A DNA stretch of 8,992 nucleotides from a virus (IMGVR_UViG_2695420728_000019:1-8992); one strand, 5' to 3'. Positions 2,318-8,992 are shown, numbered from the stretch's first letter. Program-made: numbers and translations. The notes: a model not told the origin generated them from the sequence alone.

Positions 2318-2728
2318 TCAGAACGGAATACCGTCACCGTAAGGGTCATCGCCTCCCGCTGGTGGCTGATTACCCTGTGTGCCTGTGGTTTTGCGTCTGT
2401 TCCCGCCAGGACGTGCCGCACGGGCACTGATTACGCTGTCTGCAATAACCTGATAACCCTGCCGCGTTTCCCCGTTCTGTCCGGTCCACTGGCTGACCTG
2501 CATCGTGCCGGATACGCTGGCAACGTCGCCTTTTTGGTGTTTAGCCAGGAAGTCGGCCTGCTTACCAAATGCGATGACCGATAGCCATAACGTAGCCTGC
2601 CCATCCTGCGCCTGACTACATGGCAACGATACCGCCATACGTGCCAGCGTCATTGGTGTGCCCTTGCTGGTCTGTTTTACCTGCGGGTCGTCCACCAGCC
2701 GCCCGTAAGCTGCTATCTGTGCTGTCAT
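2318..2728 (-). CDS. ssb: Single-stranded DNA-binding protein (136 aa)
   Basis: OB-fold blocks align with E. coli SSB (IAAYGRLVDDPQVK ~ VILVGNLGQDPEVR; WLSVIAFGKQADFLAKHQKGDVASVSGTMQVSQWTGQNGETR ~ [43 protein letters not shown]). Gly/Pro-rich linker and acidic C-terminal tail DDPYGDGIPF (compare ...DFDDDIPF). RBS GAGGTGG upstream; ATGA overlap with the upstream ORF. Confidence 0.8.
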   Translation of the reverse strand: MTAQIAAYGRLVDDPQVKQTSKGTPMTLARMAVSLPCSQAQDGQATLWLSVIAFGKQADFLAKHQKGDVASVSGTMQVSQWTGQNGETRQGYQVIADSVISARAARPGGNRRKTTGTQGNQPPAGGDDPYGDGIPF

Positions 2729-2976
2729 GATTCCACCTCTCCGGTTTTAACGTTGATGGTTGTCACCTGTTCAGCTTCCGCAATCTCCCGCTCTGTCAGC
2801 GTGGCAAAATTTGCCGCCGTCGTGGTCATGAATGCGCTTATCAGTTCGGGATGTGCTTTCGCGTATCCTTCCCCCGCGTGGCGGTCTATCGTTCTGATTG
2901 CCACCTTTAAGGCGTGCTCTGTCATGTCTAACGCTTTATATTTTGGCTCTGTTCTGTCTCTGTGTTTTTGAGTCAT
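2725..2976 (-). CDS. Hypothetical small protein (83 aa from ATG at 2974-2976), translationally coupled to ssb
   Basis: ATG preceded by GAGGTGG. The longer track ORF (to 3108) would read through the iteron array and is rejected. No recognisable family. Stop overlaps the ssb start (ATGA). Confidence 0.4.
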   Translation of the reverse strand: MTQKHRDRTEPKYKALDMTEHALKVAIRTIDRHAGEGYAKAHPELISAFMTTTAANFATLTEREIAEAEQVTTINVKTGEVES

Positions 2977-2978
2977 TT

Positions 2979-3181
2979 GCCCACCTCTACCCACTTTTTT
3001 CGCCCACTTTTTACGTTTTCCCACTTCGTCCAACGTGGGAAATTTGGGATTTATATCATCTTGTTTCATAGGTATTTTTTTAGTGCCCACTTTTTGGGAT
3101 ATATACACGTGGGAAAGTGGGTAATTTTGTTAAAATTCCGTTAAATCGCCCACCTTTCCCACTTTTAATGCCCACTTTTTA
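2979..3181. repeat. Iteron-type replication origin: about 11 copies of a CCCAC core (8 direct, 3 inverted) flanking an AT-rich stretch
   Basis: Direct CCCAC at 2980, 2990, 3003, 3020, 3086, 3149, 3158, 3171; longer form (G)CCCACTTTTT at 2990, 3003, 3086, 3171. Inverted GTGGG at 3035, 3109, 3117. AT-rich candidate unwinding element 3048-3083. Sits immediately 3' of the replication gene; the last iteron overlaps its stop codon. Confidence 0.6.
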
Positions 3182-4579
3182 CAGTGGTCCTACATCATCA
3201 CCGTCAATGTAGATCACGTCGTCTTTTTCCAGTTTGGCTAACCATCGTTTAAGGTGTTTTGTGTCATACCCCAGCTTTTTCATATCGTCACGTAACAGCG
3301 GGATCGTGCACTTGTCGCCGTGCTGTGTGCGTGAACGTATGCATCCCCATAGCGCGGTATGGTTTTCCGTCTTGTTCCCTGCCTCCTCGATGCGCTCCAG
3401 TTCAACAGGAGGGCGCGGATCATCCACCACCACCAGCGACGTGATTAATTCACCGTCAGCGTCGGTAAAAAGCTCCACCACGCGTAAGTCATATGCGGCT
3501 TCTTTGAGTTCCTCCGCGTCCTTCATTTTGGTGCATGAGATAACCAGCGCTTCGCTTCCTGCGTCCTCCCTGCGTATCCGGTATTCAGCATCCAGCGAAG
3601 CACGAAATGCACTGGAACCGCGCGCGCCTTTCGTCTCATCCTTGCCGGAATGGTGAACCACCAGCACCGTGGCCCCTGTGCGTCGTTTCAGTTCGTCACA
3701 ACCACGGATAAACGCCCCCATATCACGGGAATCATTTTCATCATTCCCACCAAAGCAACGCGCCAGCGTATCCAGAATAATCATGCGTACAGGTTTACCC
3801 GTTTCCCGCTCCACCTGACGGGCAGCGATAACCATTTCATCAACATCAAGCGGGGCAGCCGGAAAGATGGGGCGGTTTACCAGATACAGATTTTTCACCT
3901 GCTCATCGTGCACAACCTCCCAGGCTTTTACACGACGCGGAACACCTATACCGCCTTCACCAACCACATAGAGAACCGCACCATGTGCAACCCTGCGGCC
4001 TCCCCACTGGCGACCAGTGGCAACATGGCACGCCCACGATCCGGCAAGGAATGATTTATAGGACCCGCTAGCCCCGTATATGCTGCATAGCGATACCGCC
4101 GGAATAATCCCCTTAACCACGTAATCCAGTTGCGTGTCGTATCCGGTAGATCCAACGCTCATCGGTAGCGTGGTTTTTCGCTGGTGGTTTTTTTCTTCCG
4201 CCGGCTCTTTCCCGCGCACCCGTTCCAGGTATTCGCGCCAGTTCTCCCGCATATGGCTGTGCATCCCTTCGGGGTAATAATTCGCATCAGTTACACCCGC
4301 CGCCGCCAGCTTGTGCGCAATGGCATTAATATTTGATGGCCTGATGTGGCCTGCCTTGTACAGCCGGACACAATAGCGCCCCTCGTCGATGATTCTCAGG
4401 TCTGCCAGTTCATCCAGTTGATCATCAGCCAGCACAACGGGAGGCACATTATCGCCAGCCAGTCGCCCGTCCTGTTCCTGCCACTGTTTCGCATGTGCCC
4501 AGGCATCACTACCCGCAAAAATAATGACTTCGGTCATCTTGTCGTAAGGCTGTTTTTTTAAGTTCGGTGCGCTTTTCAT
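3179..4579 (-). CDS. Replication initiator/helicase, AAA_25 (RepA-like, RecA-fold) ATPase with ~190-aa N-terminal domain of unknown fold (466 aa)
   Basis: P-loop region SIYGASGSYKSFLAGSWACHVATGRQWGGRRVAHGAVLYVVGEG, Walker B-like MIILDTLARCFGG, and VLVVHHSGKD block typical of RepA/AAA_25 helicases. ATG with AGGGG RBS; ATGA overlap with the upstream ORF. Confidence 0.8.
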   Translation of the reverse strand: MKSAPNLKKQPYDKMTEVIIFAGSDAWAHAKQWQEQDGRLAGDNVPPVVLADDQLDELADLRIIDEGRYCVRLYKAGHIRPSNINAIAHKLAAAGVTDANYYPEGMHSHMRENWREYLERVRGKEPAEEKNHQRKTTLPMSVGSTGYDTQLDYVVKGIIPAVSLCSIYGASGSYKSFLAGSWACHVATGRQWGGRRVAHGAVLYVVGEGGIGVPRRVKAWEVVHDEQVKNLYLVNRPIFPAAPLDVDEMVIAARQVERETGKPVRMIILDTLARCFGGNDENDSRDMGAFIRGCDELKRRTGATVLVVHHSGKDETKGARGSSAFRASLDAEYRIRREDAGSEALVISCTKMKDAEELKEAAYDLRVVELFTDADGELITSLVVVDDPRPPVELERIEEAGNKTENHTALWGCIRSRTQHGDKCTIPLLRDDMKKLGYDTKHLKRWLAKLEKDDVIYIDGDDVGPL

Positions 4580-4875
4580 TTCTTGCCCCTGAATCCGTTA
4601 ATCATGGTTTTCAGCTTCTGGATGTTTGCCCGTGCCCTGGCGTTGCTGGTGGGCACGTTATGCGGCGCGGTCTGTACCAGAGAAAAATCACGCCGGAACT
4701 GATAAACAGGCATCACGCAATCATATTCGTAACCTTCACGGCGGTAAGTTACGCACCGTCCCGCCACGCCCTTAATCATTACCGTGCCGCCGTACTGGTC
4801 GCGGTAAATATCACCGCGCGTAAATTTAGGGTGAGTGTTGCCACTGGCAGTTAAGCCAGAATATTTAAGTTTCAT
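4576..4875 (-). CDS. Hypothetical protein (99 aa), translationally coupled to the replication gene
   Basis: ATG start, stop overlaps the rep ATG (ATGA). Basic, mixed composition unlike the antisense artefacts; no family recognised. Confidence 0.5.
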   Translation of the reverse strand: MKLKYSGLTASGNTHPKFTRGDIYRDQYGGTVMIKGVAGRCVTYRREGYEYDCVMPVYQFRRDFSLVQTAPHNVPTSNARARANIQKLKTMINGFRGKK

Positions 4876-4880
4876 TATTT

Positions 4881-5114
4881 TTATTCTCCGGTGTGCTGTT
4901 CTTTATATCTGTCGTGCAATAGATCTATTTCTTGCAGTTCCATTATTACAGGCTCAAGAAGCGTTATTAATGCCGTGGCAATTCTTAATTTTTGTTTGTC
5001 GCGTTCATTGTCGCCAAGTGTTTCAAGCCATATGCGCAATATTTCGTACATACCTTCAGCGTAAGCAAGGGCACTAAATGCGCGGTCTATTGTTTCAAGA
5101 TAAATATCACGCAT
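4881..5114 (-). CDS. Hypothetical small protein (77 aa, predicted helical)
   Basis: ATG start; 5-nt gap to the downstream ORF and 1-nt gap to the upstream ORF; same strand and packing as the rest of the operon. Confidence 0.45.
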   Translation of the reverse strand: MRDIYLETIDRAFSALAYAEGMYEILRIWLETLGDNERDKQKLRIATALITLLEPVIMELQEIDLLHDRYKEQHTGE

Positions 5115-5115
5115 A

Positions 5116-5337
5116 TTAATCCCCGTCCGTTGTTTTTCTTAAAACAGCTTCTGTCACGAAATCAGCATAGTTAGCGGCAATATCAAGAATATTTAGCCCT
5201 GTACCTCTGTGCTCATCAGTGCAAAGAAAGAAAAAAGCCACCCGCATAATTTCAGATATTGACGAAAGCGCATCAGCCGCATCATCAGGAACGCCGGAAA
5301 ATTCTTGTTTCAGGGAATTAAAACGATCATCACGCAT
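5116..5337 (-). CDS. Hypothetical small protein (73 aa)
   Basis: ATG at 5335-5337 preceded by GGGGAGGGGGGG RBS-like tract; tightly packed in the operon. Confidence 0.45.
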   Translation of the reverse strand: MRDDRFNSLKQEFSGVPDDAADALSSISEIMRVAFFFLCTDEHRGTGLNILDIAANYADFVTEAVLRKTTDGD

Positions 5338-5555
5338 AACCCCCCCTCCCCATTTTCACAATCAGCAACAAGAATATTTTTAGCGTCATTCAGCGACCGC
5401 GTGGCGGTGTATCGGATACATTCCAGGGCGAACAATGTGTATTCTTCCCGTTCTTCCTTTTGTGCAAGCCCTGCTGTGCATTCAATATCAATAAGCGCAT
5501 GCATCAGCGTAGTGAGCGCGGCGGCGGCTGCGTCCGGCGTGGTTTTATTGTGCAT
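5310..5555 (-). CDS. Hypothetical small protein (81 aa from ATG at 5553-5555)
   Basis: Track ORF starts at a TTG at 5585; the internal ATG at 5555 has AGGGGGA 8 nt upstream. Overlaps neighbours by 11 and 28 nt; start uncertain. Confidence 0.35.
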   Translation of the reverse strand: MHNKTTPDAAAAALTTLMHALIDIECTAGLAQKEEREEYTLFALECIRYTATRSLNDAKNILVADCENGEGGLCVMIVLIP

Positions 5556-6208: not shown

Positions 6209-6306
6209 AGCTGCCTCGATACTCTCGTTATCGTTGGTGGTTAGACGCCCCGTATGTGTTTCCGGCACTGCGGGGCGTTGCTCTTTGTATTTCAACAATC
6301 CTTTCG

Positions 6307-6339
6307 GTGTGTTTCATGTTATGAGCGCATGAAACACAC
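6307..6339. promoter_or_regulatory. Operator-like perfect palindrome GTGTGTTTCATG-N9-CATGAAACACAC overlapping a minus-strand promoter (-35 TTGACG 6339-6344, 17-bp spacer, -10 TAACAT 6316-6321)
   Basis: Arms 6307-6318 and 6328-6339 are exact reverse complements. A third copy of the half-site (TGAAACACAC, 6375-6384) lies at the -10/+1 region of the divergent plus-strand promoter. Confidence 0.5.
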
Positions 6340-6346
6340 GTCAAGG

Positions 6347-6384
6347 CTTTTTGTATTTCTTTTTTTGTGTATACTGAAACACAC
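6347..6384 (+). promoter_or_regulatory. Candidate promoter for the plus-strand gene at 6406: TG-adjacent -10 TATACT (6370-6375) with a weak T-rich -35; operator half-site at 6375-6384
   Basis: TGTATACT read directly; AGGAG RBS at 6393-6397, 8 nt before the ATG at 6406. The -35 is poor, so the assignment is tentative. Confidence 0.4.
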
Positions 6385-6405
6385 CGATGATTAGGAGTTT
6401 CAGAA

Positions 6406-6711
6406 ATGGCAACGGCTAACAAAAACGCAAAATCACAACTGACAACTGTCAGAGTCCCACTAGATGTTATGCAAGGGATGGAATCCGTTAAGCTGGACGG
6501 CGAAAGCAATGCCGGATTTATCGTAACCGCCATGCGCGGAGAAATAGCCCGCCGCCAAGCAGAAGGCAGCGGAGAAAATCCCCTTGTGTCGTCACTGGAT
6601 GCCCTGGCTAAGGTCGAACAAATCGGCATCAAAGCAGCGGAAGAAATCGGGCAGCTTGTCACCGTTGCACGCGAAGAACTCCAGCGTCGCAAGACCAAAG
6701 AACCAGAGTAA
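6406..6711 (+). CDS. Small regulator candidate with ribbon-helix-helix-like N-terminus (101 aa); divergent from the leftward operon
   Basis: Strong RBS AGGAG. N-terminal TTVRVPLDVMQGMESVKLDGESNAGFIVTAMRGEIARRQ has the strand-helix-loop-helix pattern of Arc/MetJ/CopG-type domains (inferred by eye); C-terminal half is helical and charged. Only plus-strand gene in the island core. Confidence 0.6.
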   Translation: MATANKNAKSQLTTVRVPLDVMQGMESVKLDGESNAGFIVTAMRGEIARRQAEGSGENPLVSSLDALAKVEQIGIKAAEEIGQLVTVAREELQRRKTKEPE

Positions 6712-6768
6712 TCACCATCAGCGCCGTGGTGTGAGGTATTACGGCGCATTGCTATGCAGGACAACACA

Positions 6769-6942
6769 ATGACCGATAAAGAATTGACCAAAACATTATC
6801 ACCGGCACGGAAAAGACGGCGCAGAAAGATAGAGCATGAATCAGAAAGATTCGCGCCATGTGCTTTTGCCCTTGAGCAATTCCTTAAAGAGTACAGGGAA
6901 AAGCGCTCATTGCAGGCATGGCAACGAACTGAACCAGACTGA
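6769..6942 (+). CDS. Possible small basic protein (57 aa, contains KRRRRK); low confidence
   Basis: ATG at 6769 with AGGA 8 nt upstream; lies between the RHH-like gene and the terminator at 7038. No family recognised; could be non-coding. Confidence 0.25.
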   Translation: MTDKELTKTLSPARKRRRRKIEHESERFAPCAFALEQFLKEYREKRSLQAWQRTEPD

Positions 6943-7037
6943 TAGCATTGCCCACCAGCCTGATAGCGGCTATCATCCCCGTGCTTATGTTTGGGATCAC
7001 ATACACATAAGGCGCAGCGGGTTATCTGTTCAGAAAG

Positions 7038-7065
7038 GCGGCTCCATTTCGGGGCCGCTTTTTTT
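7038..7065 (+). terminator. Rho-independent terminator (GCGGCTCC-ATTTC-GGGGCCGC then T7), probably bidirectional between the convergent plus-strand unit and alpA
   Basis: Stem 7038-7045/7051-7058 with one G-U wobble, T-tract 7059-7065. An A-tract precedes it, so the minus-strand transcript also gets hairpin plus U-run. Confidence 0.6.
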
Positions 7066-7211
7066 ATGCCTGAAAAACCCCAATTTTGTGGTTTTCCAGT
7101 CTCACCAGGGCGAACGAATCCCCGCCCACGTTCTGGCGTATATTCAATCTTCATGGTTATAGCTCTGTGTTCAGATGATTGATGTGTGGCGGCTGCGTGC
7201 CGCCAGCGTGA

Positions 7212-7400
7212 TTAATGAACTGCCTTGCAGCTATCCTTCCAGGCCAGAACCTCGGATAAAGACCAGCCAACGGAACGACCGCCAAGTTTACGACGTGATG
7301 GGAATTGTCCGGCCTTTTCCAGGCGGTAGCGACATGTACGGCTAAGGCCGGTTAGTTTTTCGCATTCTTTTTCACGTATAAACCGATCAGTGCTTAACAC
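7212..7400 (-). CDS. alpA: AlpA-family transcriptional regulator / excisionase-like protein (62 aa)
   Basis: LTGLSRTCRYRLEKAGQFPSRRKLGGRSVGWSLSEVLAWK matches the AlpA (Phage_AlpA) helix-turn-helix signature. Start is a GTG at 7398-7400 with AAGGGGG RBS 5 nt upstream. Lies immediately downstream of int. Confidence 0.8.
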   Translation of the reverse strand: MLSTDRFIREKECEKLTGLSRTCRYRLEKAGQFPSRRKLGGRSVGWSLSEVLAWKDSCKAVH

Positions 7401-7559
7401 TATTGCCCCCTTTCGTTTCTTAAAGAGTTATTTCGTGTTCTATTGCGTTGGGATGTGTCTGATTGTGTCAGGATGATTCAGAGTTGGCAAATGTTGAGGT
7501 CGTATGGTTTACAGAAACAGGAATAATCAGGATAAAATCATTTAAATTCATGTTAATAT

Positions 7560-7588
7560 AAAGGCATAAAATATTGTTTCATGCCTTT
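7560..7588 (-). terminator. AU-rich hairpin (AAAGGCAT-N13-ATGCCTTT) about 190 bp downstream of int; weak candidate int terminator
   Basis: 8-bp inverted repeat 7560-7567/7581-7588 in a very AT-rich intergenic region; flanking runs of A/T on both sides. Confidence 0.25.
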
Positions 7589-7741
7589 TTTCTCGCTATT
7601 TAAAGAGTGATTCGCTAGTGTATAAAAAACCAGTAACACATTAAAAATCAGCTACTTATAAATCCGTACACTTTTTCGCCTCTTGTTCGTAGTTGTTCCG
7701 CATTGTTGCTCATTGTTGCATGTTGTATCTGTTCGCATATC

Positions 7742-7757
7742 CAGTATGCGCATACTG
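7742..7757. promoter_or_regulatory. Perfect 16-bp palindrome CAGTATGCGCATACTG just 3' of the int stop, adjacent to phased TTGTT repeats (7683-7725)
   Basis: Sequence equals its own reverse complement. No flanking T-tract in terminator geometry, so more likely a protein-binding site. Confidence 0.35.
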
Positions 7758-7774
7758 AAAAAACACGAAAAAAA

Positions 7775-8992
7775 TTATTTTCTTCTGGCTACTGGTAGCG
7801 TGGTTACGTTTTCATGTGTTCCCGCCAGTATCCCTAACCGCTCCGTCCACATATCCAGCGCATTGCGTTTAGCATCCAGATAACGGGAATGATTATAAAC
7901 TCGCTGCATTCCTGGCATCTGATGACCTGTAAGCTGCTCCACGACATGCGGATCAACGCCTAAATCGTTCAGCATGGTTGTAAAGGTGCGCCGGATGTCA
8001 TGCAGTGACCAGTGAGGATGATTAAGCCTCCTGTGCGCTAATCTTCCATACTGCGATACGCTGGCCTCCTGTTTCGCTTCCCCCAGCAATAAGCCCGTGT
8101 GCCTGTTCTGCTCCACCAGCTGCGTGACGAACGGCAGGATCGCTTCCGGTATGGGCCGGAATATTGCGACCTTCGTTTTGCTGTGCTCCTTCGGAACGGT
8201 CCATAGCATTTCCGTAAAATCCCACTCCCCGATCTCCGATAGCCTCAGTTCTACCGTCCTGGCTCCGAAGACAATCAGGAGGCGGATTAACGCGACGTAG
8301 TAAGGGGAAAATATTTTTTTGTCCAGTGCCTGCAATAATTCGCCAAGTTCTTTGTTACTTAAGACACGTTCGCTTATATCCGGTTTTTTCCCAACGTCCG
8401 CCACGTTCAGATCGTCCAGAACGTTGCTGATTGCATAGCGCCGCCTACGGCAAAACTTAAGCGCCTGTTTGCACGCCTGTAGCACGAATCCGGCAGTAAC
8501 AGGCGTTCGCTTTGCCACCTGGTCAAAACAGGCCAGCCAGTGCCGTAGCTCGCATTTATCCAGCGGCATAGCACCAATCTGCTGTATTACGTGATTATTA
8601 AGTCGCCTTTTCAGGGCGATATAATCCACGCGGTTTTCCTTTACGTAATACTCAAGCCAGTAGGTGAGCGCATCGCCAACCGTTACGGGCTTTAACGCTT
8701 CCTGTACGGTGTAATTCATCTCATGACGTGGATTTTTCCCCTCAGCCAGCCATGTGCGACACTGTGCGGCTTTTTCCCTGGCTACTTTCAGGCTCAGATC
8801 AGGATAACTTCCCAGCTTAATGCGTTCGGGTCGTGTCTCCCTTCCCGTTCCGGCCCTGTATGTGAAATACCAGGTCAATTTCCCTGATGTTAAATATTTC
8901 ACGCTCAGGTTTCCGCCATCACTATAAAACGTGTTTTTCTCCGCTGGCTTACCATGAAGTTTCCTTAGCAAGGTATCGCTCAGTTTGTTCAT
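7775..8992 (-). CDS. int: Tyrosine-type site-specific integrase, P4-like (405 aa)
   Basis: N-terminal arm-binding-type domain (LSVKYLTSGKLTWYFTYRAGTGRETRPERIKLGSY) and C-terminal catalytic blocks (HDIRRTF, GHQMPGMQRVYNHSRY with the catalytic Tyr). The ATG is the last three bases of the window (8990-8992). Confidence 0.9.
   Translation of the reverse strand: MNKLSDTLLRKLHGKPAEKNTFYSDGGNLSVKYLTSGKLTWYFTYRAGTGRETRPERIKLGSYPDLSLKVAREKAAQCRTWLAEGKNPRHEMNYTVQEALKPVTVGDALTYWLEYYVKENRVDYIALKRRLNNHVIQQIGAMPLDKCELRHWLACFDQVAKRTPVTAGFVLQACKQALKFCRRRRYAISNVLDDLNVADVGKKPDISERVLSNKELGELLQALDKKIFSPYYVALIRLLIVFGARTVELRLSEIGEWDFTEMLWTVPKEHSKTKVAIFRPIPEAILPFVTQLVEQNRHTGLLLGEAKQEASVSQYGRLAHRRLNHPHWSLHDIRRTFTTMLNDLGVDPHVVEQLTGHQMPGMQRVYNHSRYLDAKRNALDMWTERLGILAGTHENVTTLPVARRK

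Follow-up and report, generated by a model that had tools for sequence, protein, structure and literature searches.

A CCCAC iteron array directly 3' of a RepA-family helicase gene as the probable replication origin of an Escherichia coli capsid-forming PICI

Introduction

In PICIs, the replication origin is the region directly 3' of the initiator gene (PMC6092414, Fillol-Salom et al.). The rep-ori segment of EcCICFT073 maintains a temperature-sensitive plasmid, whereas rep or ori mutants do not, and in satellite phage P4 the C-terminal domain of the alpha protein binds short origin repeats (PMC6092414). In SaPIs, rep is followed directly by the origin, in which an AT-rich centre divides 6-12 penta- or hexanucleotide iterons; these are read by the C-terminal winged helix of Rep, a self-loading helicase that needs no ATP for origin binding and melting (PMC9371898).

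The locus described here lies in a window of 8,992 nucleotides, the whole stretch of viral DNA that we analyzed (IMGVR_UViG_2695420728_000019:1-8992). With SaPIbov1, SaPI1 and EcCICFT073 it has in common the placement of the putative origin directly 3' of the initiator-helicase gene, the range of 6-14 short iterons (5-9 nt) in both orientations, arranged in sets that flank AT-rich DNA, and a helicase initiator with a C-terminal winged helix as the (predicted) iteron reader, each Rep allele having its own iteron. It differs from these systems in the motor, which has an AAA_25 RecA-fold core here as opposed to AAA+/SF3 in the SaPI Reps and D5_N/DUF5906/Pox_D5 in EcCICFT073, and in the C-terminal domain of Rep, which has no sequence similarity to its PICI and SaPI counterparts. 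The repeats are also different, CCCAC here and TCTACC in EcCICFT073, and are organized here in three clusters with two AT-rich stretches.

Other systems provide further points of comparison. In classical iteron plasmids (pPS10, F, R6K and RK2), initiator-binding repeats adjoin an AT-rich unwinding element; the iterons are 17-22-bp direct, helically phased repeats recognized by WH1-WH2 Reps that lack helicase activity, the origins carry DnaA boxes, and DnaB is loaded by host factors. The present locus shares with them the multiple repeats adjacent to an AT-rich segment, but its short bidirectional repeats, its AAA_25 helicase and the lack of a DnaA box place it outside the classical oriV type. 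In the IncQ plasmid RSF1010, the origin is activated by iteron binding beside AT-rich DNA, three separate proteins act as iteron binder (RepC), helicase (RepA) and primase (RepB'), and the repeats are direct and ~20 bp long. The helicase core of the Rep studied here is homologous to that of RSF1010 RepA (PDB 1g8y). However, unlike in RSF1010, DNA recognition is apparently fused to the helicase, the repeat core is 5-8 nt long and occurs in both orientations, and no repC-like gene is present in the replicon cassette, which sets this Rep apart from the stand-alone helicases of the RSF1010/IncQ RepA family. Satellite P4 resembles the present island in being an enterobacterial phage satellite, and its replication protein is a multifunctional primase-helicase. 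P4 alpha is an SF3/D5-type helicase, and a second cis site, crr, lies several kb away from the P4 ori, whereas this island contains a single repeat cluster.

In the searchable literature, we found no experiment on this element or its Rep family and no mapped origin for a cf-PICI or for this RepA-type allele; the accessible cf-PICI papers, when searched for origin terms, did not map one. The origin layout itself is already established for PICIs, and the locus described here is a new allele of this known origin type.

Results and discussion

The window belongs to a capsid-forming PICI

Pfam and phrog scans combined with PGAP annotation showed that the window and a near-identical locus, L001, have the gene set of an E. 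coli capsid-forming PICI (cf-PICI) phage satellite. L001 is a 99.6% identical copy inserted in tqsA on the chromosome of E. coli 2013C-4991, where the full island is 18.7 kb long. Beyond the part represented in the window, L001 encodes a prohead protease, a portal, head-closure and connector proteins, an HNH protein, TerS and TerL, and no tail or lysis genes were found in the L001 island. The complete set thus comprises int, a gene for an HTH regulator, DUF4222, rep, ssb, perC, an HK97 capsid gene, protease, portal, HNH, terS and terL. Taken together, the window and L001 fit the gene content expected of a PICI (int, an AlpA-type regulator and a replication module, without lysis or tail genes) and the capsid-forming PICI architecture that has been described previously (10.1101/2022.09.08.507074). 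A megablast search of the whole window against a collection of deposited phages returned no matches, and the element is an island of the chromosome rather than a deposited phage.

All long genes of the window are carried by the minus strand. Protein-family scans identified a tyrosine integrase (7775-8992), a DUF4222 protein (4576-4875), a PerC-family regulator (2035-2427) and an HK97-type major capsid protein (590-1795), all on this strand. The rep gene (3179-4579, minus strand) is followed, in the direction of transcription, by a gene for an 83-aa protein (2725-2976, minus strand), which PGAP calls in this 83-aa form and which matches phrog_1231 (E 6.5e-52), a family with no assigned function, and then by a gene for an island-encoded single-strand DNA-binding protein (2318-2728, minus strand; Pfam SSB, E 4.2e-17). 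The SSB is likely an accessory of the replicon.

Several additional features of the window were observed. The intergenic region between int and the HTH regulator gene, the latter annotated in L001, is very AT-rich (7400-7775, GC 0.31-0.34), includes the 30-mer of lowest stability in the window (7532-7561) and presumably serves as the regulatory region of the island. A 308-aa open reading frame on the minus strand (6228-7154) overlaps a gene of the YlcI/YnfO family on the plus strand (6406-6711, phrog_6522), and the corresponding part of the near-identical genome carries the annotation of an Icd-like pseudogene. The gene of Sakai Sp7 that is syntenic to the PerC-family regulator gene of the window is annotated as pchE. 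Some PICI-encoded PerC homologues are reported to activate the LEE pathogenicity island (PMC6092414), and the PerC regulator of this satellite may influence the expression of host virulence genes.

Anatomy of the repeat array

A first-pass annotation of the window had reported about 11 copies of CCCAC, in both orientations, around an AT-rich stretch of 35 bp at positions 2979-3181. This description proved accurate, including its coordinates: 11 exact copies are located within 2980-3175 around a core at 3050-3084, and the array fills the entire 202-bp spacer, which is bounded by the rep stop codon (3179-3181), and ends 3 nt short of the ATG (2976) with which the next gene begins. Eight of these copies are on the plus strand (2980, 2990, 3003, 3020, 3086, 3149, 3158 and 3171) and three on the minus strand (3035, 3109 and 3117), with two degenerate CCCAA copies also on the minus strand (3044 and 3094). 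Counting the 11 exact and 2 degenerate copies, four plus-strand and two minus-strand copies lie to the left of the core, and four and three, respectively, to its right. The conserved core of the repeat is 5-8 nt long, and the spacings are irregular (8-17 nt).

CCCAC occurs 22 times in the window, both strands considered, and half of these occurrences (11/22) fall within the array. First-order Markov simulations of the window (n = 1000) did not exceed 5 copies in any 200-bp segment, and in 5000 simulations with the dinucleotide composition of the spacer the mean was 0.77 copies and the maximum 5. The clustering is far above chance, and no second CCCAC cluster was found across the full 18.7-kb island L001.

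The left iteron cluster (2980-3048) contains the CCCAC copies at 2980, 2990, 3003 and 3020 on the plus strand and at 3035 on the minus strand, followed by the CCCAA at 3044; the positions of these copies are kept in relatives, and the pair at 3020 and 3035 forms the inverted arrangement TCCCAC-N10-GTGGGA. The AT-rich core, a putative DNA-unwinding element (3050-3084; 35 bp, 80% A+T), contains the third least stable 30-mer of the window. It is followed by the middle cluster (3086-3121), with CCCAC at 3086 on the plus strand and at 3109 and 3117 on the minus strand and CCCAA at 3094, by a second AT-rich stretch (3122-3147; 81% A+T), and by the right cluster (3149-3178), with plus-strand CCCAC copies at 3149, 3158 and 3171, of which the last, with its T-run, adjoins the rep stop codon.

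The extended consensus of the iteron is (T/G)CCCACTTT, with CCCAC as its core. The first-pass annotation was right about the pentamer but slightly generous in describing it as often extended, since the form GCCCACTTTTT occurs exactly three times (3002, 3085 and 3170). Each of these three occurrences sits within an 18-nt unit, TTTTnnTGCCCACTTTTT, and the units are spaced by 83 and 85 bp, or about 8 helical turns.

The leftmost CCCAC (2980-2984) overlaps the Shine-Dalgarno sequence of the 83-aa gene, GAGGTGGG, an element that acts at the RNA level. A longer open reading frame on the minus strand (2725-3108), of 127 aa from a GTG or 114 aa from an ATG, extends from the 83-aa gene into the array; it is open only in CCCAC-type islands and is probably a by-product of the repeats.

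Scans for sites of host factors and for expression signals gave no matches: the region 2977-3178 contains no DnaA box (TTWTNCACA, with at most one mismatch), the spacer contains no IHF consensus, and no sigma-70-like promoter or terminator was found on either strand in 2600-3500, so that the spacer is probably transcribed through. A reading of the spacer as a structured RNA was dropped: an Rfam scan of 2700-3500 yielded only a sub-threshold snoRNA match (E 0.89), and the folding z-score of the spacer (-1.85) is in the range to be expected with inverted iterons.

Rep is a RecA-fold helicase with a predicted C-terminal winged helix

The rep gene encodes a 466-aa RepA-family helicase and putative initiator of the AAA_25, DnaB/RSF1010-RepA-like type. 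Pfam AAA_25 matches residues 148-315 (E 3.5e-44; 151 bits against a cutoff of 27), phrog_2850 matches the protein over its full length, and the RSF1010 RepA helicase (PDB 1g8y) matches residues 150-321 (E 0.006); PGAP names a homologue 'helicase RepA family protein'. The Walker A and B motifs of a RecA-fold helicase core are present, and the sequence GASGSYKS is invariant among the Reps. We also noticed a 563-aa E. coli protein (P0001) in which a head-decoration domain (PF02924) is joined to an AAA_25 domain; it is 97% identical to the Rep of the window and is probably a gene-call or assembly fusion.

The N-terminal domain (approximately residues 1-122; 4214-4579, minus strand) is shared with otherwise unrelated PICI Reps: the first ~125 residues are 67% identical to the N-terminus of the Sakai Sp7 primase and 62% identical to that of EcCICFT073 Pri-Rep. 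No Pfam or NCBIfam matches were obtained for the N- or C-terminal domain of Rep or for the 83-aa protein. The structural model of the N-terminal domain shows an alternating strand-helix fold at moderate confidence.

The full-length Rep model is poor (pLDDT 61.7), with pLDDT 84-92 over the last ~70 residues, and a fold search with it gave only weak matches to RecA-fold proteins (KaiC and RadA) that are uninformative for the end domains. When modelled alone with AlphaFold2, the C-terminal domain (residues 400-466; 3182-3382, minus strand) reached a pLDDT of 85.9 and is predicted to consist of three helices followed by a beta-hairpin wing. A Foldseek search with this model retrieved the winged helices of MarR/MepR, DtxR/IdeR, LexA and ORC with probabilities of 0.96-0.99 and TMq values of 0.6-0.8, the E-values being weak (~0.05) because the domain is small. 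In the model, the third helix (residues 443-452) would be the recognition helix, and K441, R445, W446, L447, K449 and L450, at or near this helix, are invariant.

Because the N-terminal domain is common to Reps with unrelated iterons, it is not the determinant of specificity. The C-terminal domain, a predicted winged helix, is the probable reader of the repeats, and the earlier proposal that the N-terminal domain be footprinted on them is therefore misdirected, given the 62-67% identity of that domain among Reps that have unrelated iterons.

The repeats are retained and change in concert among relatives

Of 5426 complete E. coli genomes, 1601 match a 701-bp region surrounding the spacer, 612 of them over at least 80% of its length. 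A further 159 loci encoding relatives of Rep were collected from species-representative genomes and IMG/VR; the genera represented include Xenorhabdus, Pantoea, Kosakonia, Kluyvera, Serratia, Pectobacterium, Morganella and Erwinia. In 122 of the 131 non-redundant regions compared, each covering 230 nt downstream of rep and taken from many genera of Enterobacterales, one pentamer (strand-collapsed) is present at least six times; in control regions, positioned within rep or 600 nt beyond, the median is 4 copies. Loss of the repeats from homologous islands that retain rep, which the first-pass annotation had named as evidence against an origin, is thus not the pattern observed. The few exceptions retain 1-2 iterons after the rep stop codon and then diverge.

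Three loci, two from Xenorhabdus and one from Serratia (L027 3056-3300, L081 1555-1800 and L072 3041-3280), keep only 1-2 iterons; judged from their sequences, these are probably origin-truncated remnants in defective islands. An IMG/VR contig (L165 3092-3330) encodes a distant Rep relative with 38% identity, followed by 11 copies of TATCCGCC, so that the layout of rep followed by iterons reaches well beyond the close family.

In an alignment of the spacers from seven E. coli islands, the repeat positions are kept, and within each island every copy is either CCCAC or CTCAC. Among relatives, three repeat types were found, CCCAC, CTCAC and CGCAC, and all copies change in concert. By contrast, the block TGTTTCATA[A/G]G.ATTTTTTTA in the AT-rich core is constant over 43 origin variants with either iteron type.

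This block (3062-3084) and a second non-iteron block, TATACA[C/G]GTG (3100-3108), are both kept across the 43 variants; one possibility is that they mark the actual melting site, another that a host factor binds there.

A single Rep residue tracks the iteron base

The base directly 5' of CAC in the repeat (CxCAC) is tracked by residue 442 of Rep, a candidate for the specificity determinant that occupies the N-cap position of the predicted recognition helix and is His in the window (codon CAC, 3254-3256, minus strand). His, Asn, Ser and Lys at this position correspond to C, T, G and C, respectively, and in the non-redundant loci the pairing holds for 36/36 His-C, 50/50 Asn-T, 6/6 Ser-G and 19/19 Lys-C cases. 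There are no contradictory loci; the remaining ones have too few copies to be assigned. The iteron consensus is (T)CCCCAC or nCCCAC with His442, TCCTCAC with Asn442, TGCCGCAC with Ser442, and TCCCCCAC, in which CCCAC lies within a longer C-run, with Lys442.

Across 50 distinct full-length Reps of the E. coli type, the mutual information between column 442 and the iteron type equals the entropy of the iteron type (0.99 bit), the next best column reaching 0.56; among the ~470 columns of the Rep alignment, 442 is the only one that fully predicts the repeat type. In two helix backgrounds, LGYEMK[H/N]FRRWLYKLE and LGYEMK[H/N]FSRWLRKLEKD, the exchange of His for Asn is the sole difference, and further switches were found in a third helix pair and in the genera beyond E. 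coli. The Rep of locus L002 is 98% identical overall to that of the window, yet it is of the Asn type and is accompanied by CTCAC repeats.

Contacts of His or Lys with a G:C pair and of Asn with an A:T pair are common among amino acid-base interactions, and the pairings of residue 442 appear to agree with these preferences. The association could in part reflect linkage, that is, hitch-hiking within recombining cassettes rather than direct contact, given that the codons of the C-terminal domain are located only ~75-200 nt from the iterons. However, linkage leaves unexplained the same substitution in ~10 separate copies.

The replicon is exchanged as a cassette

The boundaries of the exchanged unit were delineated by blastn comparison with other islands. 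Homology at the DNA level between the window and Sp7 extends over 1-2987 and 4225-4890 but not between these segments, and homology with EcCICFT073 extends over 2007-2928 and 4214-5550. Homology is thus lost at the outer edge of the array and a second time ~120 codons into rep, which implies that the helicase core, the winged helix and the origin are exchanged between islands as one cassette of ~1.2 kb (2988-4224, minus strand). Judging from these alignments, the N-terminal domain of Rep belongs to the island backbone, outside the exchanged cassette.

The position of the cassette is occupied by different replicons in the two reference islands. EcCICFT073 encodes a 584-aa Pri-Rep with D5_N/DUF5906/Pox_D5 domains that is unrelated to the Rep of the window beyond the N-terminus, and the syntenic 288-bp spacer carries ~14 copies of TCTACC together with AT-rich DNA. 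Sakai Sp7 is a cf-PICI of the Sp7/EcCIEDL933 type that has in common with the window the backbone and the packaging module (96-97% DNA identity over 1-2987) as well as the gene order around the spacer, with rep on one side and the 83-aa gene and then ssb on the other. Its Rep, however, is a 710-aa primase-type protein of which only the first ~125 residues are shared with that of the window, and its syntenic spacer, of 370 bp, contains at least 12 copies of TAACCCGCA along with AT-rich DNA.

We lean towards the view that the two sets of observations belong together, with one residue, 442 (His, Asn, Ser or Lys), setting the base that is read 5' of CAC (C, T, G or C), so that specificity would switch through one amino acid and the concerted change of ~10 repeats, while a 1.2-kb unit made up of helicase core, winged helix and origin would pass from one PICI to another, the N-terminal Rep domain ahead of it being conserved.

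The array as a replication origin and alternative explanations

We propose that 2980-3178 is the vegetative replication origin of this cf-PICI, with a probability of roughly 85%, by analogy with the SaPI origins and the tested EcCICFT073 rep-ori, from which we also infer iteron binding, melting, self-loading and Rep-dependent replication. The first-pass proposal of a Rep-bound iteron origin with an unwinding element 3' of rep is accordingly upheld, as a functional inference, by the conservation of the array, its coupling to residue 442, the winged-helix model and the EcCICFT073 origin.

The array could instead be mainly a transcriptional operator or promoter for the downstream operon (the small gene, ssb, perC and the capsid genes), bound by Rep or another island regulator. 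It does fill the entire spacer before the next gene, its leftmost copy overlaps a ribosome-binding site, and autoregulation through repeats is frequent among the initiators of iteron plasmids. Nevertheless, we regard this as improbable: neither a sigma-70-like promoter nor a terminator was found on either strand of 2600-3500, the flanking genes are co-oriented with short or overlapping junctions, as fits read-through transcription, and the downstream genes vary among taxa whereas the repeats stay with rep. Moreover, the syntenic region of EcCICFT073 is required in cis for replication (PMC6092414). With no promoter or terminator signal found there, the suggestion in the first-pass annotation that Rep binding could regulate the next small gene is not supported, although Rep binding may have a secondary effect on read-through transcription.

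Very improbable, in our assessment, is a role of the repeats as the packaging site of the satellite, that is, a cos or pac site with binding sites for the small terminase subunit. The island has its own HNH, TerS and TerL, and terminase-binding sites can be repeated, but the type of repeat varies together with residue 442 of Rep, and the Rep-repeat module recurs in a locus with a capsid and decoration gene (L002), in one with a different terS (L005) and in one with no packaging module (L004). Conversely, the packaging genes of Sp7 are 96-97% identical in DNA to those of the window, whereas the repeats at the corresponding position are unrelated. The same low likelihood attaches to an origin defined by a protein other than Rep, either the functionally uncharacterized 83-aa phrog_1231 protein, which is encoded next to the array, or a host initiator, for example DnaA. 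The core of the 83-aa protein is the same in CCCAC and CTCAC islands, unrelated genes replace the 83-aa gene in other genera that retain the repeats, the spacer has neither a DnaA box nor an IHF consensus, and the repeat type is tracked only by residue 442 of Rep. We give the least credence to chance low-complexity sequence or to coding repeats of the 127-aa downstream open reading frame (2725-3108), even though this frame crosses part of the array in His-type loci: the clustering far exceeds that in simulations, with copies on both strands, the extended frame is closed in Asn-type relatives while PGAP calls the 83-aa form, the concerted base change would alter the encoded residues, and the RNA folding is unremarkable, with no Rfam match.

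A model of initiation and its implications

If 2980-3178 is the origin, replication could proceed as follows. After induction, the 466-aa Rep of the island would be made, combining a RepA/DnaB-like hexameric helicase core with the C-terminal winged helix, and the winged helix would bind the CCCAC iterons in the three clusters, in both orientations, around the AT-rich segments. Crowding of Rep protomers on the iterons would then melt the AT-rich core (3050-3084) and allow the helicase to load itself, after which the island SSB and the host primase and polymerase would complete replication, yielding concatemers for the island's own terminase. As the motor of this Rep comes from a different superfamily than those of the studied PICI Reps, polarity and details of loading may differ, and self-loading is not simply transferable.

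To conclude, this analysis places the probable origin for a widespread group of E. coli and other enterobacterial satellites, including cf-PICIs with PerC-type virulence regulators. In this allele, a winged helix is combined with a RecA-fold, RepA-like helicase, a motor unlike those of the studied SaPI and EcCICFT073 initiators, and the breakpoints of the cassette show that replicons are shuffled among islands. The rule that connects residue 442 with the iteron is testable by one point mutation and bears on how such initiators read their origins and how satellites avoid cross-talk. If it holds, the compatibility of co-resident satellites would switch with residue 442 and the repeats, and the rule would represent a naturally occurring, readable code by which a self-loading helicase-initiator recognizes its origin, and would open a way to design orthogonal replicons.
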